Source: a virus
Lineage: Duplodnaviria; Caudoviricetes
Direction: 5' to 3' (one strand)
Virus record (IMG/VR): IMGVR_UViG_3300029288_000001
Coordinates: 32,001 to 96,000 of that record
DNA length: 64,000 bases
Shown: positions 22,084 to 49,857 of the stretch, in pieces
Position numbering within the stretch: position 1 is the first letter of the stretch
Layout: each line of letters starts with the position of its first letter
Position numbers and translations under genes: made by a program
Notes under the pieces: model-generated
What the model saw: only the letters and a program-made list of their open reading frames with translations
Told to the model about the DNA's origin: nothing
Databases searched by the model: none

Positions 22084-23646
22084 TCATTTCTGTTCGCCCC
22101 CGAGCTTCTCTTTTAGTTTCTCGTAGAACTCGTTATAATCGTCGGAACGCGCAAGAACGAGCGAATCTAAGCGTTCGATGTCCTTAGCGACCTCCGCCTT
22201 CATTATGAAGTACTCGCAAGGTTCGCATAATTTACACGGAATATGATTACGATCTGCATTTCTAGGACATTTAGCGATCTTTTCTTCGAGAGAGGGTTCC
22301 GCAACGAAACACGAACATTTATTGTCGTTAACTGGCTTACAACCTTCGAACCGTTTCTTACATCCATTACAAATTTCGTGAGAGGGTTCCGCCGCCGCGC
22401 CCTTCTCTGCTTTCACTTTCTTACACGACTCACAATTACATAAGAGTCCGTGTGCCATGTAAGTCGCAACATCGTCAGAAGAGGGTTCCTTCGGTTTCGA
22501 GTCGGTCTCTTTCTCGTATTCACCACAATTCTTAGAATTAATTGTACTCCACGCGCTCCATGTGTAGGAACATCCGTTCCTTCTTCGACAAGTCAAGCAA
22601 GAGGTCTCGCTCGTGGGTTCCTTCGGTTTCGAGTCGTGTTTGCAACTATCTAAATTATAACACCATTCATCGTTCTCGATGTAAGCTTTATGGCACTCTT
22701 CACAAACCGATTTCTCGCCCGAAGTCTTTAAAAACGATCTAACCTCAAACGGCAATTTAACGCCCGCTTCTGCGCTTCGATCTACTAAACAGATCACGAA
22801 TTTCGGTTGTTTTCCTACTCGTTTGATACAGTCCTCTACGCTCTTTCCCGTAGTGATCACATCGTCGTAGATTATATAATCGCATCCTCTTAGATCAAAG
22901 TTCCAAGTGTCATCTTTAGGAGAATAATACCCATCAATACAGTCAGTTAAGGTGATTGGATGAATCGATTGGATTGCGAATAGTTTTAAACCGTTCCGTA
23001 ATTCTAATATTTTATTCGTTATAATACGAGCGTCCTTGTTTTCTGGCTTGTCTAATAGATCGAACTCGTATTTTCCGTTCAATTTAACTCCGTGCGTGGA
23101 TGTAAACTCTCCTGCTACGAAGTATTTTGAAAAATCAATTAGAGACGAAATTGGAATTGGCGGTTCCATATTCCACTCCGCGAGTCGTTCTACCGATTTC
23201 TCGCGCGAAGGCTCCTTCCCTTCGCAATGCTCTTTGTAATATTTAATAAAGTCTTGATTAACGGATTCGTGTTTATCTACGGTATCTCTGATGATAGAGA
23301 GCGCCCCGCGTAGAACCTTTATTTCTTTATCTTGTTTGTTAAGACGGTTAAATATGTTATCGTAATCTGCCTTAAAGATTAAGACTAAACGATTGTTCGA
23401 AGCACCAACGGGACAAAACCTTTTATTGGCAAGCTCGTCGGGAAGAGATTTAAGCTGGGCTTCCAGCTTCTCAATTGATTGAAACGCTTTTCCAAACGAA
23501 TCTATATAATTTTGCTCGATGGCTCGGATGTCTTTATTCTCTAATTCAGAGACCTTTTCCTCCAGCGCCTTGATACCTAATTGATCTCGGAACAATTCCG
23601 CGCTTTCCTTTTCGATGTAAAATGTGGTCTTCTTAGAATCATTCAT
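22084..23646 (-). CDS. Mosaic protein A: coiled coil, orotate-PRTase-like domain and Cys-rich cassettes
   Basis: GEFTSTHG and the PRPP motif IYDDVITTGKSV; linker motifs shared with 42425..43735 and 48532..49857. Confidence 0.75.
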   Translation of the reverse strand: MNDSKKTTFYIEKESAELFRDQLGIKALEEKVSELENKDIRAIEQNYIDSFGKAFQSIEKLEAQLKSLPDELANKRFCPVGASNNRLVLIFKADYDNIFNRLNKQDKEIKVLRGALSIIRDTVDKHESVNQDFIKYYKEHCEGKEPSREKSVERLAEWNMEPPIPISSLIDFSKYFVAGEFTSTHGVKLNGKYEFDLLDKPENKDARIITNKILELRNGLKLFAIQSIHPITLTDCIDGYYSPKDDTWNFDLRGCDYIIYDDVITTGKSVEDCIKRVGKQPKFVICLVDRSAEAGVKLPFEVRSFLKTSGEKSVCEECHKAYIENDEWCYNLDSCKHDSKPKEPTSETSCLTCRRRNGCSYTWSAWSTINSKNCGEYEKETDSKPKEPSSDDVATYMAHGLLCNCESCKKVKAEKGAAAEPSHEICNGCKKRFEGCKPVNDNKCSCFVAEPSLEEKIAKCPRNADRNHIPCKLCEPCEYFIMKAEVAKDIERLDSLVLARSDDYNEFYEKLKEKLGGEQK

Positions 23647-24724
23647 TTCTTTTTCGTCTCCTTTATTTTCTTTCTTTTAATCCTACACACCCAATCTTCG
23701 TCGCAGTAGCTCCTATATCCGCATCTATCGCACGGAATAAACAACGGAAATAAGTTCTTCTTAGCCCATTCCTGCCCGTGTGGCAGCGGTTCTTTCTTCT
23801 CGGTCATTTCTTCTTTTCCTCATCTTTATATAATTTTTTTCCTAATTCTCGATTAATTTTACTGTCAAAAATATCTAGGATCGGGTGTAGTTTCCCTTTC
23901 TGGCGCAGATCGTTAATATAATCGTCAATAACATCGTCTATATTAGGTTCTCCCGCTAATCTCCGTATTCTTCGCGCTCTTACTTCGTCGAACTCTTTTC
24001 CCAAGAACTTTTTACTCATTCCTTCTCGCCTACTCGTATTATGTATTTACAGATCGGACATTGATATAATCTAACTCCAAACCACATCTCTCCTTGATCG
24101 TCTCTTGACAATGGTATTAAGTCTTTATCGCATTTATGACAATATAATCCAATTGTAATAATCTTCTCGATCGAAAAGCTCATTCCTACCACTCCCAATC
24201 GTCAAATACTGATCGTTTTTTTGGAGGGTCATTAAACCCTTCCATATCTTGTATGATCTCATCTAGAATATCCTCAACGGTTGTCGCCTTCTTGCACTTA
24301 TCGCACCAATAGATCCATTTCTTTTCGTTATCTTTAAATCTTCCTCGATGCACTGTACCTCCGCAAGGACATGGTTTTTTTTGATCGAATAAATCGTTAT
24401 AATTCTCGGTCATTCCTTAACCTCCTCTCTCTAAGTCCATATCCGCCCAATCGGCTTCGCACTCGTAATAATCGTCCGTTTCCTTGAAATTCTTGCATTT
24501 AAACTTTCGCTTTACCATCCATAATGGCATGGTATACGCGCTGCACCAATCGGTGGAGTCTGGACCTTCTGCGTGGCTGCACCGCATGCATAACTGGGCG
24601 CTGTTGTGCCACCTACCGTAGGCTTCTTGCTCGTCTTCTTCATACCTCCTCTGGCATTCGCTACACCACTCGCCCGGCTTGTCCACTCCGTTCTTTCCGC
24701 AATTATCGCATTCAAAGGACATGT

Positions 24725-25024
24725 TCACACCTTCTCGTTTAATTTCCATATTTCTATGATGTTCTTCTTTTCGAACTGGACGCGATCTCCATAGTGTCCA
24801 TAATCGGAGGAGTTTATTGTTCTATTGGCTAACAATCCTTCTATCTTATCGCCGTTTATTTGTGCGACGCTTATCCATAGTCTCTCGCCGTATTTCCCGT
24901 CGTCGTCGGTAAGGATTATCTTAACGAGATCGGCTACTCTAACGGCGTCCTTTTCTTCCTTGGAAGGTATCCAGAAGGTATCTGGGTACTTCCTATGATT
25001 TTCTTCTTCATCTACTATTTTCGT
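24725..25024 (-). CDS. DUF2314-like protein with ACG start (missed by ORF track)
   Basis: TAA TAA CCT ACG AAA; YPDTFWIPS...DLVKI...GERLWISV...GLLAN...GDRVQF. Confidence 0.6.
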   Translation of the reverse strand, partial: TKIVDEEENHRKYPDTFWIPSKEEKDAVRVADLVKIILTDDDGKYGERLWISVAQINGDKIEGLLANRTINSSDYGHYGDRVQFEKKNIIEIWKLNEKV

Positions 25025-26629
25025 AGGTTATTATCCCCCCAATAAAAGTTTTCTCATTTCTTCTGGCGTGAGCTCGTTACGAAAGATCTCCTCTCGAATT
25101 AGTCTTATCTCTTCTCTAAGATCGCGGATGATCGCGTTCGATTTGGCTAATTCTCCTTGTAAGCGTTCGTTCTCGAACTTTAATTTTTTATAGGCTAGTT
25201 CCAATTCTTGATATAATCGAATGTTGTTGGAATGGTATTGTTTTGGAGTCATTCGTTCCCCTCCAGATAATCGTCGTAGGTGTCGTTGGAACACTCGCTT
25301 TCGTGCGCGTCCCAACAATCGAAACATAGATCCGCGTCGCAATACTTACAATTATAAGATTTGGAGAGATCCTTTCCGCATTCCGCGCATTTTATAGGCG
25401 GATAATATTTGGTTTTCGCCATTATATTTCACCTCATTCTAAATATAACTTGGTGTAGTAGTCGTCTCCGTTAATACCGTGTTTCTCTAAGAGGTAAGTC
25501 TCTAAATCCAAGAGTATATCGTCTATCACATTGTGGATACCCTTCAAATCAGAAACTTCTTTCTCTTCTTTAAATTCTTCAAACTCTATTTTTATCTTTC
25601 TTACCATTCTATATCACTCTTAGTTTCTCTATAATAGTATATAACTTACCCGCTGTTAAATCGTCCACCTTGCCACAGTTTCTTTGGTGCGTGGCGATAA
25701 AGTCCTTAATCACGCATAGCGCGTCTAGCACCAGATCCTGTAGCGTTTCCGTTTTTTCGTTTAACTCGTCTAAACTTAATTCTACCGTTTTTTTATCCCT
25801 TCTTTTTATAATAATCGTCTATAAAACTAAGAAAACCCTTTATTTTGTTTTTCCACGTCGGTCTTGAAAACACGAGCGCGGTCTTCTCGTCGCTAGGGTC
25901 GTATTCTATGTATTCGAGTTTTCTCCCTCCCGTCGAAGGATCGGTGGTAAGAGTAATAAACGAATCCGATTTTATTATTTCTATTTTTGGCGAGTAGTCT
26001 GGAATGGTATACTCGTTCTCTTTCTTCTCTTCGCTCATGCCTTCCACCTCGCTACTATCCACGCCATTAATAAAACTAATAGAAACGCCGCGAGCACGCC
26101 GCACATCGCTCCTATAAACATAACGATCACATCTTCCATGGTAAAACATTCTGTCGCTAGAACGATCGTGTTATACCACCTCGAGCGCTATTAATATGCG
26201 GAGCGCTAACAGCCCGACTAAGAGAATCAAAATTCCTAGAAACATCCATAATCCATACTCTGGCTTACCCGCGCGATAGATCGCTGTGCTGAAATTGACC
26301 CATTGGTGGAGCTGGTCGTGAGTGATCTCCCCCCGCTCGGCTTTTCCTTGCATTTCCACGAACTCGGCGTAGAGCTCTTTTCTTCTCTTATGCATATTCT
26401 TTTCTCTCTTTTAAATTGTTATTTCTTTATTATAAGGTTTTGTTATAATTTGATCGCAGATAGCACATTTTATACTATGCATATTAAAAACCCAGATTTG
26501 TTTATGATTTAAAGATCGCGTTTTACCGCACTTACAAACAATATCGTACTTTCCCGTTTCTTTGTTAAAACATTTTTCTAAATACTCTTTTGTTTCTTGT
26601 TCTTCTTTCGTTAGAATTTGATCGGTCAT

Positions 26630-27370
26630 TTATTCCTCTTCTCCTCCGTTAATAATATCGTCCATTCCCATTTTCTTTAACCTCCATTTAATTAAGAACT
26701 TCTCGAACGGCACTGGGTCGGGCTTCTCGGGCAAGAAAGTATGAGTATACGCCTCGTTAAGCTTGTTCTTCAAGTCCCAGAGCTCTTCCTCCTTGGTAAT
26801 TTCCACCTTCTCGAACATGGGCTTCCCCCACACAAATACGTTGATTCCGAACTTTAACGATCGTCCGATGGTGTTAAGCTTCTTCTTATAAATTAACGAG
26901 TTTCTGTCGATCTCTCTCGTGGGAGCCTTTTCGCCTTTTCTTACCTTTCCCGTGCGCGAGCCCGTGCCAGTTATGAAGTGGTAGATGTTGTGCTCTGCCA
27001 TTCCATTGATCGAGTGAAAGCAGTTCTTCGCAATGGTCTTAATCGCGATCTCTCGTAGCTCGCGCAGCACGGAGCGATATTCGTTTACCACGATCGGAGA
27101 GGTGACCGCCCATAGATAATTTACATTACCCTTAAGGACTTCGCGCACACAGTTTCCTAGATCGCACGATTGCACGTCCGATTCTCGCTCTACGCCGTTG
27201 TAGGTCTCCTTACCCTTATATTCTCGGTTCCGCCTCGTCTGTTGGAGAAGGAAGTCCCTCGAGTCCATAATATAAACCTCGTTGATGTCCAGGTCTGAGG
27301 TCGGTTTTTCCATGCCCCACATATGACTGCCTGTTATAGTTCTAAACGCTAATAAATCGTTCTCTTTCGT
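26630..27370 (-). CDS. Phage nucleotidyltransferase (Pol-beta superfamily), extended to ACG/ATA start
   Basis: The catalytic ITGSHMWG...SDLD motif begins upstream of the track's ATG. An in-frame TAA precedes AAA ATA ACG. Confidence 0.8.
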   Translation of the reverse strand, partial: TKENDLLAFRTITGSHMWGMEKPTSDLDINEVYIMDSRDFLLQQTRRNREYKGKETYNGVERESDVQSCDLGNCVREVLKGNVNYLWAVTSPIVVNEYRSVLRELREIAIKTIAKNCFHSINGMAEHNIYHFITGTGSRTGKVRKGEKAPTREIDRNSLIYKKKLNTIGRSLKFGINVFVWGKPMFEKVEITKEEELWDLKNKLNEAYTHTFLPEKPDPVPFEKFLIKWRLKKMGMDDIINGGEEE

Positions 27371-27752
27371 TATTTTTTATCGCTCTCCTTTTTTTGTGAT
27401 ACCATACCCACGAGTAAGATCATGATACAGATCCAATACGCGTCTTCCGAGATGTTGGTAACTCCTACAGCTTTTAACACAATAAACATTATTTCTATTA
27501 TTAACAACACCCACGCGCCAGCTTCGCTCATTTTTTTTTCATTCTCCTTTCTTTATTCTGGAAACCCATAATAATGGGGTTTTTTCAACTCTATTTTTTC
27601 TAATATAATATAAGAACTAGGAGATGTCCACTCCACTTTCAATTTATACTTCCCGCATAATTGGCAGTATCTAACTTCCGTGCGATCGTCTGGGAACTCC
27701 ACCGCATCTATATTTCCTCCGCACAATGGACAGACATCTAACTCGTCTTCTT

Positions 27753-28193
27753 TCATTTTACTCCCATCAGCTCGTCTCTTACTTTCATTAACAGTTTTCC
27801 GAGCATGTCCTTTCCTTTAACCCCCCAGTATAGGTCCGTAGGCGAATTCTCGTGCAATCTCGCGGGATAGGTCGCGATTAGCTTCGCTTTAAGGTCGGGG
27901 TTCTGGGAAAACTTCGCTCTAAGTCCTTCTAACATCACGTCGTTTTTCATGGCGTCCCAGTTCTCTTTCATATCCTCTTTTCTAAGATTGTGTCCTACGA
28001 CCATCGCGTAGTAAGGAATAGGCGCATTCTTGAGCCACTCGCTAAGCTCTTTTTTATTGGTCTTCACGGATTGGTAAAACACCTCGTTGCAACTATACTC
28101 TTCGTCGCCAATCTTTTGGATCGCGCGTTCGAAGTTAGAAAAACATCCGTTCTTTTCTTTCCTTAAGTAAAAATATACATCTTCTTCTACCAT
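27753..28193 (-). CDS. NADAR/YbiA family protein
   Basis: FSNF, EVFYQ, AKFSQNPDL, ENSPTDLYWG, LGKLLMKVRDEL. Confidence 0.9.
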   Translation of the reverse strand: MVEEDVYFYLRKEKNGCFSNFERAIQKIGDEEYSCNEVFYQSVKTNKKELSEWLKNAPIPYYAMVVGHNLRKEDMKENWDAMKNDVMLEGLRAKFSQNPDLKAKLIATYPARLHENSPTDLYWGVKGKDMLGKLLMKVRDELMGVK

Positions 28194-28601
28194 TTTTTAT
28201 TCCTCCTTATTTTTTAAGTATAACGAATAATGATCCCGCATAGATCGCTTCCTGAGCGTCTTCCACTTCGCGATCACTTTCTTTAACCGTTCTACTTTAT
28301 CGTTGTAAGTGCCCTCTGTCGCCCAGTCTAAGTCTCCTACTATATCGGCGATCACGGACGCGACGAAGCCTTTCCTGTCCGAGTCCTTATACTCTTTAGT
28401 AATGTCTTTGTAATTATACGACCACTCGGTATTGGAGGGGTGTAGACAAGGTTTTATGGTATTACCCTTGATCGTGTGATTAGATGTTTCTAAGCTATAT
28501 TTCTTCCACGGCATTTTTACTCCTCGTCTTTTTTAAGTATGTTTTTTATTATTTAAATAATTTGATTAATAGAATAATATAAAAAAAAATTGAGTTAAGA
28601 G

Positions 28602-29021
28602 TTATGTTTTATACGGTAGTTGTAAATCGGCGCTGGTAATCAATTTACTGAGGTCGATCGTCTCGCGCACGGATTTTATCTGTCCATCGGGTAGTTTTAT
28701 CAACAGCTCGGTAAGGAACTCCTCTTCGATCGTGCGAATGCCAAAGTCTACGCTGGTAAATCGTGCTTTAAGATAATACAGTAACGCGCGGTAAAGCTGT
28801 TGTTTGTAGTTCTCTTGGGTCGGTAGCTTGAATTGTAGTCGGAACCCTCGTTCCACGCCGTTGATCTCTAAGATAAACTCGATCACGCCAGTCTCCGTGT
28901 ATTCCGTAGTCCGTATTCCTTTAAGGTTGTATTTCTGTAAGAACTTGCGGATTTCGCCCTGCGTGTTCGCTACGTCTACTTTAGACCTGTAATACGGTAG
29001 CTCGGAAAACTTCTTCGTCGT
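28602..29021 (-). CDS. Conserved hypothetical protein, extended to ACG start
   Basis: GAGG lies 8 nt before ACG; the frame is open for 45 codons upstream of the track's GTG (LPYYRSKVDVANTQGEIRKFL). Confidence 0.65.
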   Translation of the reverse strand, partial: TTKKFSELPYYRSKVDVANTQGEIRKFLQKYNLKGIRTTEYTETGVIEFILEINGVERGFRLQFKLPTQENYKQQLYRALLYYLKARFTSVDFGIRTIEEEFLTELLIKLPDGQIKSVRETIDLSKLITSADLQLPYKT

Positions 29022-31840
29022 TTCTATCGCCTCATATAAGGGTTTCGTCTAAACCTAGGTCTTCCTTCGGTGGTTGTGGTGGTGTAGGATCCGCGCTTGG
29101 TTGGGGAGGAGGCATGTTCATCATAGATTCGAGTAGAGTCCTCATAGCGTCTACGTCGCGTCTCAATGCGGCGAGCTCGGAGAGGATTAGTTCGAAGTAT
29201 CCTTTCGTGGTCTGGGGTGAGCTCGTAGTAGGCGTCACGAAGGTAGGAGTTCCAGGGGGTGCTCCTTTGGGAGGAGGGGGTAAGTTCTTAGATTGTGCCG
29301 AGCCTCCAAACTCTGCGGGAATAGGCGTAGGAATAGGTTTTGTGTCGTTGTATTTGTTCTTGTATCTTTCGTAGTCCTTCTCTGGACCCCATTTTACCGT
29401 AGCGTTATCCGCTATTCGAAAGATCACGGTCTGGAGCTTTTCGTAGTTCTTTGGGAAGGCGTCTAAGATGTCATTAGTTTGTATCCACGCCATTTGTCCT
29501 TTCCCGTCTCCAATTCCTACGACGCTTTTTCCGTTTGGTTTTATCCAGATCGCGATCCCTCGTTCTAGTTTAACCATTTTTCTTATCTCCTTCTATTTGT
29601 TCTAAGTCCTTGATCATTGCGCGGTATTTTATCATTACAGCTTTTAGTTGCGAACTCGTGTGGTCTAAGCCTAGCGATATTTCTTTAAAATATTGTTGTC
29701 CAGAAACGGACAGCGAAAACAGCTTTACAAACGGACAGGTTTCAAGTTGTTTGAAAAGTTTCTCTAAGTATTCTAACTCGTCCCTTGCCGTATTGATGAG
29801 GGTCGTTGCGTCTTCTTCTGCTTGGTAGATGGTAATTTTATTCATTACTTCTTCTTTTTTATCTTCCATTGTGTTGATCTTCCTCCAATTTAAGAATTCG
29901 CTTGATCAGTTCTCTGATAAGTTCGTCCTTCGCTCCTTTATCTAGGTAGCTCCAATCGGCTCCTTCGTCGATCACTAGTTTAAGCAAGTCTTTGGGTCGT
30001 TCCATCATTTTCTACTACGCCTCTTTCTTTCTTCTTTTAATTGCCTACGCGCTCGCGCTAGCTCTACATCAAGCTCGGTTATTCTTCTTCTCTTGAAAGA
30101 CATAGATTTTAGAACCATCGACCTATACCTCGATCGCTAACAGTTGTTTGATTAGTTCCTCGAAGCACGGCACGCACATGGGCTCGTTTCCGATACCGTA
30201 GCGCACCATCTTGTTGTAAGGTGCTTCATCGGCTGGTAAGAGCCCGTGCTCGCACCGTCGGCACCTGTACGGGTTCCTTACTTTCTCTACTGTATACGAA
30301 AACCGTATCTTGATAATTTCGATTTTCTTTACCAATTCCAATATTTCTTTCATTTCCATTATTTCTTCTCCTCCTTGATATAAAAACTATTAAAATGTCG
30401 CACGATGTCGCGGATGTGTCCTTCTACGGATTCGTTGGATGGTCCTTTAAATGGATCTTCGCAGCTAATGATGTCGCAGTCCTCCGAGGTCGGATTATAA
30501 TATTCGCATTTGGGACAGATCACTTCTTCTCCTTGTGCTAACCTTCGCTTTAACTCTTCGTAGTCCATTATTCTTTCTTGCCCTCCAGTTTTAGTTTCTC
30601 TTCCTTGTCCTTGATTACATCTTCGACAATATCGCTGGCTTTTTCGAAGGTCAAGGCAAAGAGAAATCCCCATGCAAAGAAAATCCAACTTTCTTCTGGG
30701 ATGACGATCATCATCATAATAAATATAGCGATCGTTACCGCAGTCAGTATGGACACTACTACGAGTCTAAGTTTCCATAACATTATTTCTCTTCCGCCTC
30801 CAATTTCTTTAACTTTTCTACTTGGTCGGGGTCTCCGTATTCGCATATAATATCTTTAATAGTATCGAGAAGGAGATCATCCAAGACATCTTCCGCTAAA
30901 TGTCTGATCTGTGATTGAATGTCTAGTTCGTAGTCCATAATTAGTCTACCTCGTAGCCTTGTTTTTCCAGCCATTCCGCGAACATTTTCGTTGGTTTTCC
31001 CTGTCGCACCGCGATCCTATTGGTGTTCTCTCGGGAGAACGCGTTGATAAGACCTTGGTATTCGTCTGAGCTTATAGGAGGTAGTTTCTTTAATATCTTC
31101 GTCTCGCCGTTCTTTTCCGCGATTTCTACGAGCTTGTCTTCTAAGTTTTCTTCTTTCTTCGTCGCTTTCAAGATTTCGCCTTTACTATATTCCACTTCTT
31201 CTGGATGTTCTTCCATGTAGAGAACCATACGGTCTAAGTCGCTATCGGGTATCGTGCGCGAGGTGTCGATCGTGCAAGTCGTGTCGGTGCAGTTCGTCTT
31301 GTTATCGTATATAACCGTGTCCGTGTTCGCGTCGTTAATGGTGTAGTTAAAGTCCGTGGTCGTAGTCGCGTTGATCGCCTTCTTCCCTTTCTTTTTAGTC
31401 AACCATTTCTTGAGTCCCATATTATTTCTTCTCCTCCTTCCTTTCTTTAAGTTGTTGCATAATGTCTTTGTGGATGGCGGCGTCTAAGAGTTTTTTAATT
31501 TTCTCTCGACTCTTTGGGTCAGTAAGGTAAACCCATTCTAAGATACGATAAAAGAACTCGTCGCATTCCTGAACGGTGGACCCATTCCACGCATCGTCAA
31601 TGGTGACCTCCTTTTCAAATTCGAACATAGGCATTATTTCTTCTCCTCCGTATCGTGTAACATCCTTCCTAGCGTGTGATTACTTCCCAGAGTGATTAAG
31701 AATTTAAAAGTAGCTACGTCGGTTTTTAACCCTTCGTGTTTCTTAATTTCTTCAAATGTTTCTACGAACTCTTGATCTAACTCTATTTGATATTTGTGTT
31801 TAAAATGTGTCATGATGTAATACTTATTCGTGTGTTGTAA

Positions 31841-31848
31841 TATTTAAA
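31841..31848 (-). promoter_or_regulatory. Archaeal TATA box TTTAAATA (same motif at 6571, 33937 and 36619)
   Basis: Lies in AT-rich gaps upstream of minus-strand genes; here about 28 nt before an ATG at 31813. Confidence 0.5.
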
Positions 31849-33894: not shown

Positions 33895-33984
33895 GGGTTA
33901 AATCTTCTTTTAAGTATAGTAACTATAATTTTTTTATATTTAAATAATTACTCTCTTGAAAAAAAATAAATTAATGATCGTTTT

Positions 33985-36442
33985 TTATTCTTCTTTTAAA
34001 TATTTTGGTGTCTTATACTCCGCGTATTTATCTAACCCTTTCTTGGGTATGAATTTATCTACGATCGGATAATGCTTGTGCTCTAAGATGTCTTTTACAT
34101 CGAAGTAATGAATAGTAATCTCGTTCTCGCGTTTTAACCGCGCTACCTCCGCTCTAAAATCCGCCGAGAATTCCGTCGCGATGAAGATCCCTTCCGTCTG
34201 CTTCTCTCTTAATAGAGTCCCGCTAAACGCGTCTAGATGAGCGCGCCCCGCCTTGAATTTCTTTACTTGGATAAGGCACTCCCCCAGATTGCCGTCTATG
34301 CCGCCGTCGGCGCCTCTATTGCCCGAGAAGCCTCCAAACTCGCGTATGACGAAGTTCTGGAACTCGTAGCCGTCAAGCTGGGCGATCTCCTCGGGGGTGA
34401 TGGGTAGTCCTTCTATGATATCGAACCTTACTTTAAGGCGCTTGGCGATCAACCTACACGCAGTAGGAGATACATCTATTCCGATCCATTGCCTGTTGAG
34501 TTTCTTCGCTACGGCGATCGTTGTGCCACAGTTCCCATTCAATATTACTTTTCCTTCTCTTCTTATAATGATTATATGGGAAGGAACTGTTACACAATAT
34601 ACATAGTCGTTCCAATCAATAATTTCTGCGTGTTTTAATGTAGACTCGGTTCGTTTAATCGTTCCGCTGATGCAATAACATATACTCTTCGACCAGAATA
34701 ATCGACCATCCTTTGACATTTTTTTCTCCGTTCGTGGTAGTCGTTTTGAAATCGTAACACATATACCAAGCTTAACCATTATTTCTGCTATGTTATCAAT
34801 TAATTGTTTTGAAATGCTATAGATCCGTATTCCATCTTCCCTTGTCATTCCATCTGATAAGATTAAGCCTTCTAATACATCTTGTAAGTATGGTTTATCG
34901 TAGTTTAGAACTTCTCTTGGTATCGTGCGTGTTGGTTGTTTGTGGCATTGTTTAAGATAAGTAAAGATCTCTTCGTTGTTAAAGGTATATCGTCCTTCAG
35001 TTTTCTTCCAAACTATGTTCATTTTGTTTAAGAAGTTTTTAATGTAACTATCGTTGTCTTTTATTTGGCGTATTCCTACACGATACCCCGTTGATGTTTT
35101 TCCTTCGTCAATATATCCATCACCTAGCCAGAATCCAAGGAACTTACACCATGCGTGTGGGTCTATGTTATTTGGTGGTTTCGGTATATTTCCAGAGCTA
35201 ATTCCATTGCAGTTTCTTTTAATTTTCGCTAGCCATTTTATGTCCTTAGCTTTGATAAAATCATAATCTGTATAATGAAATGTTGGGGCGGTCTTTCTCT
35301 CAGCCGCATACATGTTATGATCGGGCGTGACTAAAATGTCATACATTGTGGATTTCCAGTGATACATCTTTCCATTATGGATATATTTCTGTTTCGTTAT
35401 AGCATCTACATATTCAATGGTATTACCTTCTACTTGGGCGATCCTTTCGTTTTCTAGGTTCTTAAATTTTACCCATCCGTTCTCTGTTAATAACTCCGTT
35501 TCTCCATCGTAACATCCACAAAACGCGTCAAGGACGACATCGTTCTCGTTGGAACTGGTTTTGATTATACGTTCTAAGAGCGCTTCTGGCTTCTGTGTTG
35601 GATAACCAAGTCGTTCTTTTGATGACGGATGTAAATACATTCCATCCCATACATCTGAGCATGGTATATTAGCATCGAGATATTTTTTATAATTAGGTAA
35701 TCCTCCACTCGACCATTCGAACTCTCCACCATTCCTTACGAATTCGTCTATCTTATTTTGAGTCCATACCCAACCGTGTTTATTATCTAATTGAACTGTT
35801 TTGTCTTCCGTTGGGAAGTATCTACTTTGACCTTTTGAGACATCTACATAACTATTAGCTTTTATGATAGTTATACTTCTATAATATCCTTTGTTATCTT
35901 TTTTCTTGTATTGACCAGATAGATCTTTGGACTTTTCTTTTTGAATGTTAAATATATAATCGTCTGATTTGGTATAAATCAATATTACATCGTGGATTAC
36001 TCCAAATTTATTAGTGCCAGTTCCTTTAGCGTTCGTTCTCAACCAGCATATACGATTTAAAGGATCTCTATCGAATATTTGATCGCATAGAACTCTTAAA
36101 TACGCGTCCGCGTGCCAGTCGCAATGGAGATAGAAGCTTCCCGTTTTTTTAAGAACCCGATATATTTCCTTAATTCTCGGTTCCATCCACTCCAGATACA
36201 CGTTGATATCCTTCTTCGCCCGTCCGCTCCCGTTCTTGTTCTCGGTAATCCAACGGTCTCCAAACTGCCGTATTTCCGCGCCGTCGCCCCAAATGACCTC
36301 GTAGTTCTTGATCGCGAAGGATTAGTAAAATCTAATCGGTTTTCGTGAAGAACGGAGGGTCTATGTAGACGAGATCGACGGACTCGGATTCCAAGGTCTT
36401 GAGGACTTCTAAATTATCTCCACATATTATTCTTTCTATCAT
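33985..36442 (-). CDS. N6/N4 DNA methyltransferase (beta class) fused to an Mrr-like nuclease domain; contains an intein and a predicted 31-nt intron
   Basis: Exon 1 (36442-36342) reads MIERIICGDNLEVL...DLVYIDPPFFT. Exon 2 has YLHCD, YPTQKPEALLERII, DAFCG/CGTT, and a C-terminal GYEFQ...DGGIDG...IQVK. Confidence 0.88.
34531..35514 (-). mobile_element. Intein (328 aa) with LAGLIDADG homing endonuclease
   Basis: Splits the SAM motif DAFCG|CGT. Starts CYDGETELLTENGW and ends VYCVTVP...GN|C; contains FLGFWLGDG and LEGLILSDG. Confidence 0.93.
36311..36341 (-). other. Predicted BHB-type mRNA intron, 31 nt
   Basis: GUUCUU CACG AA^A...GAUUAG-loop-CUAAUC...CGCG AU^C AAGAAC. Removal deletes an in-frame TAG and fixes the frame, giving DPPFFTNKNYEVIWGD. 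Confidence 0.75.
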
Positions 36443-41900: not shown

Positions 41901-42424
41901 TATTATGTCGTTTCTATAAACACAATCGGTCATTTCCGCACCCCCGCCTCTTTTCTGCATTCCTCCATTGGGAATTTACACGAACCTTCGTAAGTACAAT
42001 GAGGTGTCCACATATTTCTTAGTTCGGGACACTCTAAATTGATTAGAATATTATCATAACCGTCTTCGTTGTTCGGATGGCTCACGGTGCGCCCACCTCC
42101 TCTTTAATCTCTTCTATTTCTGCCGTTACGGTTATTCTATATCGCTTATTATCTTCCATGAAATCCTCTAACTCAAACTTCCAGTAGTCAAGTTTCGAAG
42201 GAAAGGTTCGTGCGTGGTGTCTTCCGTATTTTTCCCTATTAAAAGTTCCTTCTACGGTCTTAGTATATTTCATTTCTTCTCGTCCCCGAGCTTCTTTAAT
42301 TTCAATAAAACATCGTCTAATTTCTCGTGAAGCTTCTTAATCTCCGCGTTCAGGTTAATGCTCACTAAATTAACCAAATCGTCCAATGCCGCTAATTTCT
42401 GCAAGATTACCTCATAGGTATCCA

Positions 42425-43735
42425 TTATGTACCGCCCCCGAGCTTCTCTTGTAAGTTCCTCAAATGCGTGATGATTCCCGCGTATAACTGAATACCGTTG
42501 ATTCCCATGTCGTCTCCTAATCCTTGTTTTGTTTGATCAATCCACGCGAAGATTGCGTTAATGTCCTTAGCGACCTCCGCCTTCTCGACCCATTTCTTTC
42601 TGCGAGAACATCTCTTTTTTCTATCCTCTGGTCTATACGAACAATAACCGTTGCAATTGAGGTCTTCGCATTCATAACATAAATCAAAAGGATGAGAGGG
42701 TTCCGCCGCCGCGCCCTTCTCTATTGGTTTAAAATAATCACATATTCCCCATGTATCTACATTCAAGCAATCCTCAGACATATATTGCGAGCAGAATTCC
42801 TTACAAGTTGGTTCGTCGTAAGGTTCGCCCTTCGGTTCAAAACTACTATATTCTTCGTCGCATTCATCGCATTCGGGAGAAGGATCTTTAAACATACATT
42901 CTTCGCATTTCTGAAACATTTTAGAGGGTTTCGATTTCGAGTCGGTCTCTTTCTCTAATTCCGTTTGTCGTAGGTTATAGCCTTGCCAGAACTCGTTTGA
43001 TTTCTCGATCTCGGTCTTGTCTTCCTTCGATTTAAAGATCGGTAATCCACACATGTTTCCGTGCGAGTCTCGAGCACAGTTAGAAGTGTCGATGGTATAA
43101 TCCTTCGGCTTCGAGTCGGTTGAGGGGACTTGAACCCCTATTCCTCCCGTAAGAGAGTCTTTCCCCAGCTCGCGAGCCTGTTCCGCTTGTCTCGGAATTA
43201 GACTGACAACCGATTTCTCGCCCGAAGGCTCCTTCTCTTTCTCTCGTTCTTTGCTACAACTACTTGCGTGATTTACGGGTAGTCCTCCACATTCGGGGCA
43301 TCTAATCGAAGACTCCTTCACTTCGTGTAATTTCTGAGAGAGTTTTCTAAATAAATCAGACGCAATAGAATCAGAAGGTATTCTGCCTTCCGTAACATCC
43401 TTTAGTATGGATTCGATAAGAAAGAGCGCCCCGCGCAGAGCTTCGTTCTCTTTTCGAATATTTACTAATGTTATATTAGTTTTCGTGATCTCTCCCATTT
43501 CAGCTCCAATTCGTTCTTTAATATGCTCTCCTAATTGGTTGAACTGGGCTTCCAGCTTCTCAATCTTAGGCTCTATGAAGTTCTCTTGTCCAATACCACC
43601 TAATATCATCGCCTTCTCGGAGATCCAAGCGTTAATTCGTTTTAGAACTTCAGAATGGTTGTTGTCGAGGCTCGCGACCTTCTCTTTTAGATCGTTAAAT
43701 TCCTTTCGTTCTATATAGTCCATTTCTTTCACCAA
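42425..43735 (-). CDS. Mosaic protein B: coiled coil and Cys-rich cassettes
   Basis: Shares IEKLEAQ, LRGAL, KEPSGEKSV, TDSKPK, GAAAEPSH, KAEVAKDI and EKLGG with mosaic protein A. Confidence 0.7.
   Translation of the reverse strand: MVKEMDYIERKEFNDLKEKVASLDNNHSEVLKRINAWISEKAMILGGIGQENFIEPKIEKLEAQFNQLGEHIKERIGAEMGEITKTNITLVNIRKENEALRGALFLIESILKDVTEGRIPSDSIASDLFRKLSQKLHEVKESSIRCPECGGLPVNHASSCSKEREKEKEPSGEKSVVSLIPRQAEQARELGKDSLTGGIGVQVPSTDSKPKDYTIDTSNCARDSHGNMCGLPIFKSKEDKTEIEKSNEFWQGYNLRQTELEKETDSKSKPSKMFQKCEECMFKDPSPECDECDEEYSSFEPKGEPYDEPTCKEFCSQYMSEDCLNVDTWGICDYFKPIEKGAAAEPSHPFDLCYECEDLNCNGYCSYRPEDRKKRCSRRKKWVEKAEVAKDINAIFAWIDQTKQGLGDDMGINGIQLYAGIITHLRNLQEKLGGGT
43116..43213 (-). ncRNA. tRNA-like element embedded in a CDS (no anticodon loop)
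   Basis: Acceptor stem TCGGTTG/CAACCGA, T-arm AGGGG-TTCAAGT-CCCCT, D-stem AGTC/GACT with an enlarged loop, and CTCT-TACG-GGAG in place of the anticodon arm. Confidence 0.7.
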
Positions 43736-44595
43736 TCCATAAAATATACTATTTCGCGATAAACCGCGATGTGTCTATTCTCGGCTTCTTTCAACGCGTT
43801 ATCCAATAAGTCTCCGTATATATCTTCGCCAATGTAGTCTTTGATATATCCATGGACTTCCCAGTAATCGGCAGAATCGGAATACGAAGTGTTCGTCCTG
43901 CGCTGATACGCACTTATTAAATTTATTATATCGTCCATTTCCAACTCTTCTTTCTCGTAGAAGTTTTTTTCTCTACACCCGTCGCATTCCTCGGGTTCTT
44001 TGTCCTTAAACACGCTTCCACATTCTGTGCATATATAAAACATTATTTTACCAACTCCTCCATGTGCTGATCCATTGCCGCCGTTAAGAAACCTATAAAA
44101 CCTAGTCGATCTTCCTCGTTAAGGAGGTTAATCCTCTTGTTTCCATCGCGGTGTGTTAGAGCGTAACCCCAACCTTTTTGGAACTCGTCCACCAGTTTCT
44201 GTGCTAGGTTCCACGACAACTTCTTCCACTTTTCTAACTCTATTATTTTAGCTTCCATTCGTAACACCTCTTATCCTCTATATTAAGGCAATTATTCGTG
44301 ATATCTTCAAAAAATACAGCAGTTTCGTAGACGGTCACTTCGCCTAGACGTTTTTCGTAGACGAGGATCTTAACCTTACCGTTCTTAAATAACACGATCT
44401 TTCTAAGATCTTTAAATAAACTGTAATACTCCGTTATAATCTTCATAATTCATCCATCCATCAAATTAAAAACTAATCTATTAGAATGAAAACATTTTTT
44501 ACAGATTCTCTTTCCACGACCCCATAATGTTTGGGAGAGGGCTTCGTAGATTTTAATAATTCGTATTTTCTTGCAACTAACGCATCTACCGATCA

Positions 44596-45354
44596 TTACA
44601 ACGCCTCGGGAATGTGTTTTAATTTAACTTTGGTAAACTTTTTTAATGCTTCGATTAATTCCCCTGTCTTATATATCATAGGTTCTGGTAAGACACATCT
44701 GTCGCGGTGGCTATTATATCCTACATAAACGCGTTCTGGTTTAAGTTCCATTAACATGGGAACGAATTCTTCTAAGTCGAACTCTAAGATCGGTTCCACC
44801 GTGACCATGATCGGATTATCGGGCTCCTTTTCTTTAATGTAGGTTAAGAACTCCGCCCATCGTAGTTTTGGCGTAGGAGCGTTCGAGATCGTGCCATATG
44901 CCCGATTGGTTTCGAGGGTTATTGCGAGCATGCAATTGGGAGGGAAGAGCCGATCTATCTTGTAGAAAGTAGCTACATTCTTCGTTTGGAATAAGAACTT
45001 TCGATCGTTCCACTTCTCCGCTAAGACTACTAACTTTTCGATCATCTCCTTCGTAGCGAACGCGAGATCGCCAAACCGCGAGAGCCATATAAATTGATCT
45101 CCGGTAGTCGTAGGCATTCGTTTTTTCGTAGTAAGGTATTTTTGATACCGATCTTCGTGCCAATGAGGCTCGTAGTCGTAGCATTTCTGGCATCCGTTGA
45201 TTTGTTTTCCTTGATCGTCGAAATGTGGCATACGACGCTTCATTTGGGCTTTAAAACTTGGTTTACAATAACTACAAGTATACCCGCAGCCAATAAACAC
45301 ATTACCAAACGGTAACTTGACCGCGTCCTCGTACATATTATCCTTTTCTTCCAT
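44596..45354 (-). CDS. DUF5131 / phage Gp37-Gp68-like radical-SAM-type protein
   Basis: GCGYTCSYC (CxxxCxxC), FGDLAF, FLFQTKN, TLETNR, VTVEPIL. Confidence 0.75.
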   Translation of the reverse strand: MEEKDNMYEDAVKLPFGNVFIGCGYTCSYCKPSFKAQMKRRMPHFDDQGKQINGCQKCYDYEPHWHEDRYQKYLTTKKRMPTTTGDQFIWLSRFGDLAFATKEMIEKLVVLAEKWNDRKFLFQTKNVATFYKIDRLFPPNCMLAITLETNRAYGTISNAPTPKLRWAEFLTYIKEKEPDNPIMVTVEPILEFDLEEFVPMLMELKPERVYVGYNSHRDRCVLPEPMIYKTGELIEALKKFTKVKLKHIPEAL

Positions 45355-47098
45355 ATTTTCTTACTCCTTAAAATCTATTATTAATTTTTGTTTTTGAGAT
45401 TGATCGTCATATATTTTATTTTTAATCAATTCCGAGAGTTCATACATCTCGTATAACATCTCGTCGGTGACTTGGTTCTTACCATGCTTTTCGTTATGGT
45501 CCATAAAATCGTCTAACTCTCCACTACACATAATCATGCTTTTAGAATCCTCCTTGTTCTCGTAGAACGAAAACGCGTTAAGCGGTTCTTCTTCCGTATT
45601 AAAGACCACGATCGAGTTCTCGTTCCATTTAATATCTGGGGGTTCGTGCTCTTCGTACATAAGACCACCAAACTTTTTATTTCTTTTCGCTCCCTCGCTC
45701 GATCGACACGCATATTCCATATCCTACAATTAACATGGCGTGAACTAAGAAAAACGCGAAGAAATAAATGCTCGGGTCGAGTTTCTGTAGGTAGTTCGCG
45801 AGCTGCATAGCGATTGCCATGGCTATAGTTAATATTACTATAACTGAGCTTCCTTTTCCCATTTTTAATATCCCTCTCCTATTTCTTTTACTATTTCGCT
45901 TATCTTATTTATTTTCTTAAATAATTCGCGTATTTCTTCGATCTTGTAATCAAGGTTTTCGCGCCACTTTACTTTTTCTTCTAAAGTCTTGAATTGTTGT
46001 TCTAAACTATATTTTAATTGCCACACATCTTTCCAATCGTGGTCTTTCGCCTCCGCTCGCACCAACGCGACGCGATACGCCTCTTTCGCTTCCTCGAACT
46101 TTTGGTTTAACCCTACCATCGTGGTGCGCAGTAACGCGACCTCGTTCCTTACATCCAATAGTTCCTTTCTAAGATCTTCGCTCATTCTTTCTTTTCCTCG
46201 TCGGTTATCTTAATATGACTTTCGCCCTTTAACTTCGCTTCGCGTATCTTCAGGATGAGACCGTGCATACGATTTTTATGGATTATCTGCACTCGGGCAA
46301 AGGTCTCCTCGCATTTTTTAATAAGCTCTATGGGCTCGGAGGTTTCTACTTTATGACCTATATAGTCGTTGGTAGGGTTTCCACAGATAACGCAATTACA
46401 TCCGTTTTCCCGAACGGGATCATCGTCCTTGTTCGCGAGTTCGAGAAGCTCGGTTAAATACTCCTTCCTACACAATTCGCACATTACTTCCGATATATGC
46501 ATTCTAACTCTCATTTTTCTTCTTTTCCTCCTTCTTTTTTATTGGTTCTCTGGCTTCGTAACCACTCCATCTTTAACCATAACGGTATTTTCCCTTCTCC
46601 TTTACATAGATCGCAGTCGTAGGGAACGCCTTCTTCGTGTAAGTTGTAGCCGTATTCTCTATACCCTCCTTCGCCGTGGCATTCTGGACACGTCACGATC
46701 TTATATTTATTACTGGGAGAACTATTACCTGGTCTTTTATGAATCATTCTCATTTTATTAGATCACCTTTTTATAATTTACCATATCTTGATACGCGCAC
46801 CGCGACTTGTTGTGCTTGGGACATAGATTCCATTTTTTATAGAAACGGCATTTGAGCTTGCACTCGATGTCCTCGATCTCTTTTTCGATCTTATAGAGCT
46901 TAACCTCGTAGTGTCCTATCTTTTCTACCACCTCGTGGTAACGCTTTAACATCTTCGCGTCCTCGTCGGGTTCCTTTTCTTCGTCCTCTTCCTCCTCGTC
47001 CCAGTCGTCTGTCTCTATTTCGAGTTGGCGGTAAAGCCAATCTCTTTCTTCCTCTAAACCCTTTATTGTTTTCTTCGCGTCTTTTAGATCTTCAAGTA

Positions 47099-47491
47099 TT
47101 ATCCAACCATCGGGTTCCATACTTCCCCTCTCGCTTCTACTTCTTTCTTAATTTTTAGTAACTTAATTAATATCTGCCCATGACACTTCAATGGCGTTAG
47201 AGTGCGCGTCGTTGCACACCAACATCCAAGTCTTAACCCCTCGAGCTCGTTCAGGTTAAACATCTTCGGATCTAACGAGATTCGTTTCCGTATGTAGTTC
47301 TCGTATAACTCCAACGCTTTCGCGCCGTATTTCTCGATCGAAAACGGGTTCGCCCATTTCGAGTCCTTGGGAAACTCCTCGTGGAGCGCGTGCGTTCTCA
47401 TCTGAGCGCGACCTATGTAGAGGTCGTAGTGGGGACGCACTCCTTTTACCTTGTGGATGTCGATAACCATGCTCATTACAACCACCCCCAA
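47099..47491 (-). CDS. DUF4326 family protein
   Basis: YDLYIGR...SKWANPF...LGCWC...CHGQIL. Confidence 0.88.
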   Translation of the reverse strand: MGVVVMSMVIDIHKVKGVRPHYDLYIGRAQMRTHALHEEFPKDSKWANPFSIEKYGAKALELYENYIRKRISLDPKMFNLNELEGLRLGCWCATTRTLTPLKCHGQILIKLLKIKKEVEARGEVWNPMVG

Positions 47492-47730
47492 TATAGAATG
47501 TCAAGGTCGCGTTCGTCTTGTAGTTTGGATACCTTTATCCATTTCTCCGTTAGTCTATTTATAAAATTCAATAATTGTTGAGGCGTGAGCACTTGGAATT
47601 GAGAACAATCCTTTAATTCTCGCGGTAATTTCTCCCACCCCTCCTGTAATTGGAGGTGTTTAAAATTCATTATTTTATCCATTATTTTACAGTTGGTTTT
47701 ATGATCGCAGATATCGCATATTGGAATCGT
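47476..47730 (-). CDS. Hypothetical protein, extended to ACG start
   Basis: GGAGG lies 8 nt before ACG ATT CCA; the extension adds a CDICDHKTNC motif. Confidence 0.6.
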   Translation of the reverse strand, partial: TIPICDICDHKTNCKIMDKIMNFKHLQLQEGWEKLPRELKDCSQFQVLTPQQLLNFINRLTEKWIKVSKLQDERDLDILYWGWL

Positions 47731-48531
47731 TTTAATTGCCTCCTTTCGTTTCTAAATAACATCCTTCTTTTCGATCTTAATGTCATACGCGTTCATCTTA
47801 GTTAGTAACGCTTCTCGGATTATTCTAACTACGAACTCGTTCAACGCCACTTTCTTGTCTCTATAAGAATCTGGTAGCACTATTTCCGCCTCGTCCATAA
47901 ACCCATATACGTAATCCTTCACCAATTTCTTACCGTGATTCTCCATATATTCTTTAATGTATTTCGCTACGAATTTATGCACTTCGAACTTCTCTAACTC
48001 CTCGTGCAAGACTTGATACGCGATTCCGCGAATGTCCTTTTCCAACTCGCTAATATTGACTCGTATTTTACAGTCTTTCTTGTCTTCGGTCATTTCCGCG
48101 CCCCCGCCTCTTTCAGTTTTTTAATAATATTATTTAATATAAAAGTATCGTTAATATTTCTATCCCACTTCCGTTGTTCTATGGTTAGAATTGATTGTAA
48201 TTCAGAATCAGATAAAAGCGACATTTTTAAATGTTTTATTAATCGTATTAAATGATTTAAATGCGTTCTATTCTCCGCGTGACATACCACATTCACATAA
48301 TTAATCTGTCGCGTGGCATCTATTTTATCTATTAATAAACGCGTTATTTCCTTTAGGCTCATGGAGCGCCCGCCTCCTTCGTTTTATGTTCTTCTATAAA
48401 ATAGTCTATAATAAAATTAACTAAAGATTCAACGGCATAATAAGCGTGAGGATTATGAATAACATCAATAATAGGACCTCCAAGAGCTTTTGTTTTTTCG
48501 CGGAGTTCGTCTATAAAAGCTTTCTCGTCCA

Positions 48532-49857
48532 TTACTTTTCTCCCCCGATCTCCTTTCTTAGTTTTTCAATATATACGGAAATTATTCCTTTTAGCGTTTT
48601 ATGATCGATACACGCGTCAACATATTTCTGTAATTGATCGGCGACTACTGCCTTTTCGATCACATCGATGTGTTCCATTACCGATTCTTCGTTGTTTTTC
48701 GTGCGATCTATAACGATTATTTTTTCAAGAGGGAGACAATTTGGATAAAACCAATTTCCTTTGAGATCCTTACATTTTAGTCCGCATTCGTCTATTCCTT
48801 CACCACCTATCGCGAAAGGACAACGATCGCATTGACCAGGGACTGGTTCCGCCGTCGCGCCTCTCATTTTATTGAACTCGTCTTGAACTTCCTTTTCCGT
48901 AATATCAGGGATCTTTAGATGAGACGCCGCCTCTTTCTCGTCTTCTTCCTTAATCCTCTTACAATAATCTATTTCCGATTCGCCGTCGATCTCAGAAACT
49001 ACGGTGTAAGGAGCGGTAGAGAGAACCGTTCCCACAGGAGGGTCCACTCTTTTATAACATTCACAATCGCATTTATTACAGTCTCTATCATAATGGTCGG
49101 CGAATGTATGTCCACACTTACAAAGGGGATGATCCTTCGCTTTCGAGTCGGTCTTTTCCTTCTCTCTTTTTTCGATTAACGCTTTTCTTTCTTGTTTATA
49201 TTTGATCTCGTCGTACACGCTACATCCTACCGTTCTATTGTTTTTTTCTTTACAATCAATAGATTTGGGACACTTCTCGCATACAATAATCGATTTCTCG
49301 CCTGGAGGATCTGTCGCTTCTTTCATTATTTTTTTTAATCTCTCTTCTTCTTTTTTAAACTCGAACGCTTCCTTTATAGAAGGATCGCCAATTCTTATAT
49401 CTCGTAGTCCTCTTGATTGGTAAGCGTCTTGGATTGAATGAGAAGGTGGTATTCCTTCCTTCTTTCCTTCGAGCGCGTCTAACCTCTTTAATACGCTCTG
49501 TTCCTCTTTCCACTCTTCTTGAGACGAGTTCACGCACGCACGCATCCAAGTTTCGAGATCGTTTAACCGCAGTAACATTTCCTCCCGTCCTTCGATCTCT
49601 TTCGTCATTACTACCATCCTCTCTTCGATCTTACATTCGAGCGTTTCTATTCTATCTCGGAAGTCTATAAGCACCTCTCCCGTCTGCGTGAGCTCTCGGT
49701 CGGCGAAGGTTGTAAGGTCTTTTACCTTGTCCTCTATTTCGTGAAACCTTTGTCGTATTCCATCTATAACGCTCAGTTGATCGTTCCTATGTCTCGCGAG
49801 GATGTCTTCGAGCTTGTCCAACCGTTCTTTTAATTGGATGCTTTCGTAGTCGGTCAT
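48532..49857 (-). CDS. Mosaic protein C: coiled coil and Cys-rich cassettes
   Basis: Diverged linkers PPGEKSI, KTDSKAKD, GATAEP, EKAVVAD and EIGGEK. Confidence 0.7.
   Translation of the reverse strand: MTDYESIQLKERLDKLEDILARHRNDQLSVIDGIRQRFHEIEDKVKDLTTFADRELTQTGEVLIDFRDRIETLECKIEERMVVMTKEIEGREEMLLRLNDLETWMRACVNSSQEEWKEEQSVLKRLDALEGKKEGIPPSHSIQDAYQSRGLRDIRIGDPSIKEAFEFKKEEERLKKIMKEATDPPGEKSIIVCEKCPKSIDCKEKNNRTVGCSVYDEIKYKQERKALIEKREKEKTDSKAKDHPLCKCGHTFADHYDRDCNKCDCECYKRVDPPVGTVLSTAPYTVVSEIDGESEIDYCKRIKEEDEKEAASHLKIPDITEKEVQDEFNKMRGATAEPVPGQCDRCPFAIGGEGIDECGLKCKDLKGNWFYPNCLPLEKIIVIDRTKNNEESVMEHIDVIEKAVVADQLQKYVDACIDHKTLKGIISVYIEKLRKEIGGEK

Follow-up and report, generated by a model that had tools for sequence, protein, structure and literature searches.

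The stretch of DNA analysed here (the window, 64,000 nt) spans positions 32001-96000 of the IMG/VR virus record IMGVR_UViG_3300029288_000001, which is complete at 224,826 bp and carries direct terminal repeats. The window has a GC content of ~41% and carries nearly all of its genes on the minus strand. Three of these genes, at 22084, 42425 and 48532 (designated genes A, B and C below), contain GEKS[VI] and DSKxK linkers, which a first-pass annotation had read as the two halves of a bulge-helix-bulge motif (BHB), which is the substrate of the archaeal splicing endonuclease EndA, flanking in-frame cassettes. We confirmed the three open reading frames (ORFs), their strand and the linkers at the positions reported. 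Fold predictions, including the minimum free energy (MFE) structures, and comparison with related viruses strongly support reading the GEKS and (T)DSKPK linkers as what the two halves of a BHB motif encode in the protein frame. The genes and motif halves are the following.

22084..23646, minus strand: gene A, 520 aa, ORF and translation.
22704..22724, minus strand: gene A 5' half, with outer strand CUUCGG(G), CGAG at 22714-22717, bulge AAA at 22711-22713 and inner strand UCGGUUU.
22620..22646, minus strand: gene A proximal 3' half, with CUCG at 22630-22633, bulge AAA at 22627-22629 and outer strand CCGAAG; MFE fold.
22488..22508, minus strand: gene A distal 3' half, AGACCGA-CUCG-AAA-CCGAAG; MFE fold, z = -2.83.
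23179..23205, minus strand: gene A upstream REKSV site, a local hairpin CGCGAG-AAA-UCG-GUAGAA-CGA-CUCGCG.
42425..43735, minus strand: gene B (P0004), 436 aa from TTG or 432 aa from the ATG at 43723.
43207..43228, minus strand: gene B 5' half, CCUUCGG(G)-CGAG-AAA-UCGGUUG.
43102..43122, minus strand: gene B proximal 3' half, CAACCGA-CUCG-AAG-CCGAAGG; MFE fold.
42930..42947, minus strand: gene B distal 3' half, GACCGA-CUCG-AAA-UCGAA.
48532..49857, minus strand: gene C, 441 aa.
49289..49311, minus strand: gene C 5' half, GAUCCU-CCAGG-CGAG-AAA-UCGAU.
49131..49152, minus strand: gene C 3' half, ACCGA-CUCG-AAA-GCGA-AGGAUC.

An independent scan reproduced all five excisions of the first-pass annotation, namely 22628-22711 (84 nt) and 22496-22711 (216 nt) in gene A, 43110-43214 (105 nt) and 42936-43214 (279 nt) in gene B, and nominally 49142-49294 (153 nt, coordinates by register) in gene C, each of them a multiple of 3. 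The cuts, predicted on the 5' side between 22712 and 22711 in gene A and between 43215 and 43214 in gene B, fall after the second base of a Lys codon and leave GEK(P/S/A)K. In genes A and B each strand's bulge lies 3' of its central-helix strand, as the BHB topology has it, and for the short and the long excision of either gene the MFE structure computed with ViennaRNA is an outer helix, a 3-nt bulge, the CGAG/CUCG helix, a second 3-nt bulge and an inner helix.

Gene A is laid out as an N-terminal coiled coil, a phosphoribosyltransferase-like insert, Cys-rich cassettes and an EKLGGE C-terminus. The protein matched no Pfam or PHROG family, and the likeness to phosphoribosyltransferases is suggested by hand reading of the motif IIYDDVITTGKSV, outside any tool match. 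The short excision codes for one 4-Cys module and the long one for two. In the proximal 3' half the conserved ACCGA is mutated to CACGA, and in the MFE structure an alternative 8-bp helix (GUUUGUGA/UUGCAAAC) substitutes for it, resulting in an inner helix in which a 1-nt bulge separates 3 bp from 8 bp. In the ensemble gene A favours the distal 3' half: the central helix of the distal pairing has a probability of 0.95-0.98, and that of the proximal pairing reaches 0.97 if only the proximal half has been transcribed and falls to 0 at equilibrium. At the upstream REKSV site, on which the first-pass annotation was silent, a 5'-half-like sequence with its AAA bulge (23191-23205) pairs locally and leaves no 3' bulge; the site could represent a relic or decoy. 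Gene A also contains a weaker BHB-like pairing (22298-22393, minus strand, 96 nt), which runs from the GAAAEPSH block to a downstream FVAEPSL repeat, with a central helix CGCG/UGCG and several G-U pairs, and is not significant alone.

The statistical weight of the pairings differs between the genes. In a whole-genome scan for a 4-bp central helix with 3-nt bulges and flanking helices, restricted to Watson-Crick pairs because a version allowing G-U pairs was too noisy and was dropped, the 105-nt version of gene B (7+4+7 Watson-Crick pairs) was the top BHB-type match in the 225-kb genome, and none of 8 dinucleotide shuffles equalled it. Judged by itself, the pairing of gene A (inner plus outer helix of at least 11 bp) is equalled by chance in shuffled genomes roughly once on each strand, so its significance rests on the position in conserved linkers and on the relatives described below. 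Another GEKSV-like site, at genome position 21739, was rejected as lying in no open frame.

In gene B the central helix of the proximal pairing has a probability of 0.85-0.88; the distal motif is present in the MFE structure of the long segment, but its ensemble probability is just 0.07. The 105-nt cassette is the only one that encodes no Cys, and it has a tRNA-like fold. Aligned end to end with the Rfam tRNA model, positions 43115-43213 (minus strand) score 23.9 bits, under the gathering score of 29. The acceptor stem in this alignment is the BHB inner helix, U8 is present and the T-arm is perfect (AGGGG-UUCAAGU-CCCCU); the D-loop is enlarged by a 36-nt insertion and the anticodon arm is degenerate. 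Nothing in the window was reported by Rfam at the gathering threshold or by ARAGORN.

The cassette of gene C again encodes a 4-Cys module. Pairs adjoining the 3' bulge have been lost and distal pairs gained with the register unchanged, suggesting that gene C carries a degraded BHB copy; the evidence for the motif in this gene is weak. Gene C also has a partial relative, P0005 (263 aa), which has only the N-terminal 127 residues in common with it and lacks the linkers. P0005 comes from a 3998-bp contig (L123, Logan SRR12486999) that is a syntenic fragment of a closer relative of the virus, with neighbouring genes 55-73% identical.

Contrary to the first-pass annotation, according to which the three genes share only short linkers, genes A (22178-23475) and B (42433-43564), both on the minus strand, have nine nucleotide-identical blocks of 13-30 nt in common amid diverged sequence. 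The blocks encode IEKLEAQ, RGAL, GKEPS, GEKSV, EKETDSK, AEKGAAAEPSH (with the GAAAEPSH mentioned above), KAEVAKDI and KEKLGGE, and synonymous sites are frozen in every one of them.

Relatives of the three proteins are scarce. A word-indexed search returned the query alone, a pattern-based locus search of IMG/VR returned none, and an exhaustive HMMER profile search found the three paralogues and P0005 only. The orphan look of these genes to gene callers and homology searches would be explained in part by the conserved unit being an RNA motif. Nucleotide probes taken from the motif halves (17 nt of the 3' half, 18 nt of the 5' half) brought up chance matches only, and a 14-mer of the 5' half hit at least 117 loci and was too unspecific. 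One of these 117 loci is a viral contig of 35% GC (L036) that reads ...IIGEKSV...DSKPVID... in frame across a 72-nt insert and folds into a textbook BHB, in which AAA forms both bulges, CGAG pairs with CUCG, and the outer and inner helices measure 10 and 8 bp. A gapped pattern with a 50-80 nt gap recovered this locus from IMG/VR together with two chance matches in contigs of 71% GC, and no match was obtained with a gap of 78-108 nt.

Scanning metagenomes with the gapped pattern yielded 52 loci, 7 of which pass a filter that is blind to pairing (GC <0.45 and an open frame). Four of the 7 (L145, L157, L175 and L168) have inner and outer helices adding up to 12-18 bp and canonical hBHBh' folds by MFE. 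Their outer helices differ between loci (CUAUAAUUGG/CCAGUUAUAG, AGAGGG/CCCUCU and AGAUGG/CCAUCU) and are unrelated to those of the window genes. The ~45 high-GC matches served as a negative control and contain stops, lengths in all three phases and pairing of at most 9 bp. The low-GC contigs with the motif and the virus studied here have distant protein homologues in common. JGI samples 3300009488 and 3300028835 are among the sources of the relatives.

The protein encoded at L145 has six homologues in the protein collection, and in every one an insert occupies the same site, with conserved flanks around an interior of 60-87 nt that is hypervariable in sequence and length. The L145 interior has no Rfam tRNA match. 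Three of these orthologues (L190, L192 and L193) were found by protein search alone, blind to structure, and all keep the BHB motif, L192 in canonical form by MFE. Compared with L145, L190 has three double compensatory changes in the outer helix, and these come at the price of altered amino acids. From 10 sequences RNAalifold derives a canonical BHB as the consensus, with compensatory changes at 8 of 16 pairs. In the same alignment 90.6% of cells are paired, compared with 77.5 +/- 1.8 in shuffled alignments (0/500 reach the observed value) and 23-46% in slid registers, and the covariation score is 0.356 compared with 0.130 in shuffles (0/500 reach it). The core recurs, without change of reading phase, in at least three protein families unrelated to one another. 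The first-pass annotation had proposed covariation in relatives as a check on its reading of the linkers, and the recurrence of the motif in related viruses with covarying helices strongly supports that reading. The predicted exon junctions are GGCGAGAA + RCCGAAGG in the window genes and UUGGCGAGAA + ACCARUUAU in the L145 family.

In other viruses of the lineage (L195:301-840, P0018; L196:223-660, P0016) a conserved Cys module, CDLYGECDHQGAYQKDGKWCYE, lies exactly between GEK and DSK. These loci were not counted as evidence: they often retain the outer and central helices but lack the inner one, and MFE support is mixed. In P0016 the central helix reads UGAA/UUCG and not CGAG/CUCG, with synonymous changes on both sides, and the fold is not predicted.

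Reading frame is conserved along with the fold. Each of the 13 interiors examined has a length divisible by 3 and no stop in the GEKS frame, whereas stops occur in the other two frames. Under a null of neutral introns, the probabilities of being stop-free have a product of ~1e-10.6, with a further factor of 1e-6.2 for the length condition; since some interiors are orthologous, the true figure is less extreme, but still decisive. The inserts must therefore be translated at least part of the time. None of the 13 cassettes breaks the frame or an essential motif in the manner of the obligatory cbf5 intron, and no repeated element body is seen, the interiors having no similarity even between orthologues.

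Taken together, the motif is confirmed in genes A and B and weak in gene C, and the best explanation in our view, at a probability of roughly 0.58, is facultative splicing by EndA and the ligase RtcB of introns that can also be translated in frame. Facultative splicing is the simplest mechanism because both the BHB fold and readability through the insert are constrained, the combination expected of a message that is used spliced and unspliced. Splicing of the gene A and B cassettes is probable, and the alternative splicing or circular-RNA release put forward in the first-pass annotation would fit every constraint seen. The fold, its covariation in relatives and the preservation of frame are observed, whereas cleavage, ligation, the ratio of isoforms and any benefit are inferred. 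In the pre-mRNA the two BHB halves would pair around the cassette; host EndA would cut after the second base of each AAR bulge; and host RtcB would join the exons into ...GEK|(P/S)K... and circularise the cassette RNA. Because the inserts are stop-free multiples of 3, unspliced messages would be translated as well, and each gene would yield a long and a short protein. The short form of protein A would lack one zinc-ribbon-like module or two, according to the 3' half that is paired, and gene B would release the 105-nt tRNA-like piece.

Whether the arrangement benefits the virus can be read in two ways. The cassette may be a tolerated selfish intron and not an adaptive switch; adaptive isoform choice is equally possible and could change the number of 4-Cys modules in proteins A and C. 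If transcription and translation are closely coupled, a BHB with halves 60-280 nt apart may often be unwound before it is cut, which would favour inserts that are harmless if retained.

Several observations weigh against facultative splicing. The frame constraint means that the unspliced message is translated, and splicing may be rare or absent. No insert-free allele was found, 7 of 7 L145-family orthologues carrying the insert, and searches of IMG/VR for spliced-junction DNA gave one chance match only, in a phage of 67% GC. The central helix and AAA bulges are nearly invariant in sequence, beyond what EndA needs, which hints at another recognition factor or plain common descent. Relatives with a Cys module between GEK and DSK mostly lack the adjacent inner helix. 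Within the window, the first-pass annotation had described a helix between two 3-nt bulges: the BHB is indeed the MFE fold of genes A and B, with a clean 5' bulge, but the outer helix contains one unpaired G, either opposite the 3' bulge or two pairs off if the G-run slides, so that the 3' site is not clean. Similarly, its outer helix GAUCCU/AGGAUC of gene C does pair, but no other part of the motif forms, the MFE structure lacking the central helix (probability ~0). Finally, nucleotide identity between genes A and B is not by itself specific evidence, because most of the shared blocks are unrelated to BHB pairing.

The proposed enzymes would have to come from the host, neither EndA nor RtcB being found among the virus's own genes. 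Closest to the RadA/Rad51 recombinase encoded in the window, among reference genomes, are homologues from Promethearchaeia/Promethearchaeota (Asgard) metagenome-assembled genomes (MAGs), at 56-65% identity over the full length, which makes an Asgard archaeon the likely host. EndA is present in all three MAGs with the nearest RadA and RtcB in two of the three. Asgard EndA is of the broad-specificity (alpha-beta)2 type with an L1 loop and tolerates relaxed motifs (PMC5829648), and the tRNA genes of Asgard archaea are heavily interrupted (bioRxiv 10.64898/2026.10.13.758758). A search for the motif pattern (58-88 nt class) found no match in 301 genomes of the phylum of the MAG with the nearest RadA, or in the three MAGs themselves.

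A further BHB-like element in the window interrupts an N6/N4 DNA methyltransferase gene that is split across frames. The 31-nt element (36311-36341, minus strand, within 36300-36355) has a central helix CACG/CGCG with one A-C mismatch. Exon 1 (36332-36442) ends ...DPPFFTKTD* and the remainder lies in another frame; by hand reading, cuts after the second base of the AAA (5') and AUC bulges would give DPPFFT|NKNYEV... in frame, and Pfam placed both exons on the methyltransferase model. Like the cassettes, this element resides in the same virus, has an AAA 5' bulge and would presumably be processed by host enzymes. Unlike the cassettes, which are optional in principle, it contains a stop and a frameshift that make its removal obligatory. 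The gene also carries, at 33985-36201 (minus strand), a LAGLIDADG/Hom_end intein-like insert together with a C-terminal Mrr-type nuclease domain, and with the BHB-like intron it therefore combines intervening elements at the RNA and protein levels.

BHB introns in messages have precedents. The cbf5 pre-mRNA intron of Crenarchaeota is a BHB intron in a coding message, removed by EndA and a ligase (PMC2738675). As in the cassettes, the intron lies in coding sequence and some versions (33, 36 and 39 nt) keep the frame; the cbf5 introns, however, are 16-44 nt long, confined to one cellular gene and obligatory, as a catalytic residue is disrupted (PMC2738675). The cassettes here are 60-279 nt long, viral, spread over several unrelated genes and translatable in every case; whole Cys modules are encoded by some of them, and alternative 3' halves exist in two genes. 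In Haloferax, the BHB intron in the 5' untranslated region of HVO_1309 was shown to be processed by circular-RNA sequencing and in vitro cleavage (PMC7714728), which likewise establishes an mRNA, neither tRNA nor rRNA, as a splicing-endonuclease substrate, but in an untranslated cellular leader and not, as here, in a viral coding frame. Putative 12-bp introns in protein genes of an archaeal virus (Peng et al., as cited in PMC2738675) resemble the cassettes in being short in-frame insertions of uncertain splicing; going by the account in PMC2738675, they differ in their length of 12 bp, have no demonstrated splicing and were inserted in a way that account calls unknown. In the published work searched, EndA-type mRNA splicing is described for one cellular gene (cbf5) and one 5' leader and for nothing viral, and the literature searched contains no BHB-bounded in-frame cassettes, alternative 3' halves or BHB introns in Asgard virus genes. 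If confirmed at the RNA level, facultative splicing of the cassettes would mean that viruses of Asgard archaea choose protein isoforms via the tRNA-splicing machinery, and it would bear on the origin of intron-bounded protein modules before the spliceosome.

No rival explains covarying 3-4-3 helices in an archaeal virus as well as splicing does. An unlikely but credible alternative is that the RNA structure is real and selected without being a splice signal, acting through cleavage without rejoining, release of a circular or tRNA-like RNA, or control of translation or stability, with protein always made from the uncut message. The in-frame, stop-free constraint, showing that read-through proteins matter, the tRNA-like gene B cassette with its perfect T-arm and no Cys module, and a conservation of the central helix and bulges that exceeds the needs of EndA are all in keeping with this alternative. 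It has to contend, on the other hand, with the joining of EndA cleavage products by RtcB in all known cases (PMC7714728, PMC2738675), with cuts in equal codon phase, such that joining restores the Lys codon and the frame, and with a tRNA-like interior in one case only, that of L145 not being tRNA-like.

We consider it improbable that the linkers are DNA-level recombination joints that shuffle cassettes, after the model of the motifs in T-even tail-fibre genes or folded sites like integron attC, the BHB likeness being incidental. The nine nucleotide-identical joints between genes A and B, most of them without BHB pairing, the mosaic proteins with swapped modules, and the sharing of the N-terminus of gene C only by P0005 agree with such shuffling; short homology, however, predicts neither complementary joints, nor 3-4-3 geometry, nor covarying outer helices made of exon sequence specific to each locus.

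Shuffling could also occur at the RNA level. The BHB halves of genes A and B, and partly of gene C, would be interchangeable, given identical central helices and compatible strands in the inner and outer ones. On the analogy of split tRNAs, one may speculate, with a small chance of being right, that trans-splicing between messages gives chimeric proteins and that the cassettes are exon-like modules that build mosaic families. If true, trans-splicing of this kind would give viruses of the archaea nearest to eukaryotes a counterpart of alternative splicing and exon shuffling.

Rickettsia palindromic elements are palindrome-bounded inserts, in frame and translated, in unrelated protein genes, and the cassettes could be conceived as similar selfish palindromic insertions without RNA processing or function. 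The occurrence of the core in the same phase in at least three unrelated families, the tolerance of the inserts as variable loops and the lack of an insert-free allele all agree with that notion. We nonetheless regard it as quite improbable. The body of a Rickettsia element is a conserved repeat, in bacteria without splicing machinery, whereas the cassettes conserve their boundaries alone, in EndA-substrate geometry with covariation; the interior is not conserved, so that a repeated element body is lacking; a dead insertion would not be expected to keep its helices by compensatory change through long divergence; and flanks derived from a target would be direct repeats and not complementary.

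Translational bypassing of the T4 gene 60 type, with take-off at the AAA of GEK and landing on the AAR of DSK brought near by the helix, would generate the GEK|P product with the RNA uncut. Take-off and landing codons match (AAA; AAA or AAG) in every copy and the product is the spliced one, but bypassing is very improbable here: UCG follows the take-off codon, with no stop or known stall signal, hopping needs no exact BHB geometry, and this archaeal virus has BHB introns elsewhere. To our knowledge, bypass elements are also shorter than the 60-279 nt gaps found here. Chance complementarity among the codons of flexible conserved linkers can hardly be the explanation: pairings of gene A strength do arise about once per strand per genome in shuffles, as noted above, but the relatives have different outer helices with compensatory changes and the controls gave 0/500.

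Other genes in the window and beyond touch on RNA joining. In addition to RadA/Rad51 and the DNA methyltransferase with its LAGLIDADG intein, the window encodes an Rnl2-type RNA ligase (PF09414; 50780-51655, minus strand), lying upstream of gene C at a distance of ~900 nt that includes two small ORFs, and an RlaP-family nucleotidyltransferase (26630-27322, minus strand). These virus-encoded RNA ligase and RlaP-type repair or joining enzymes could act on cut RNAs. Outside the window, at genome positions 144680-145502 (minus strand), a viral tRNA cluster includes a tRNA-Ser(GGA) with a 55-nt intron and a tRNA-Leu(UAA) with a 499-nt intron (ARAGORN). Five genes of the window, genes A, B and C among them, end ...EKLGG(E/G) just before the stop in near-identical DNA, GAGAAGCUCGGGGGYG (22093-22107, 42431-42445, 48538-48552, 21929-21943 and 21412-21426, all minus strand); the following gene may use the G-run as its ribosome-binding site, or the proteins may share the motif as a C-terminal tag.

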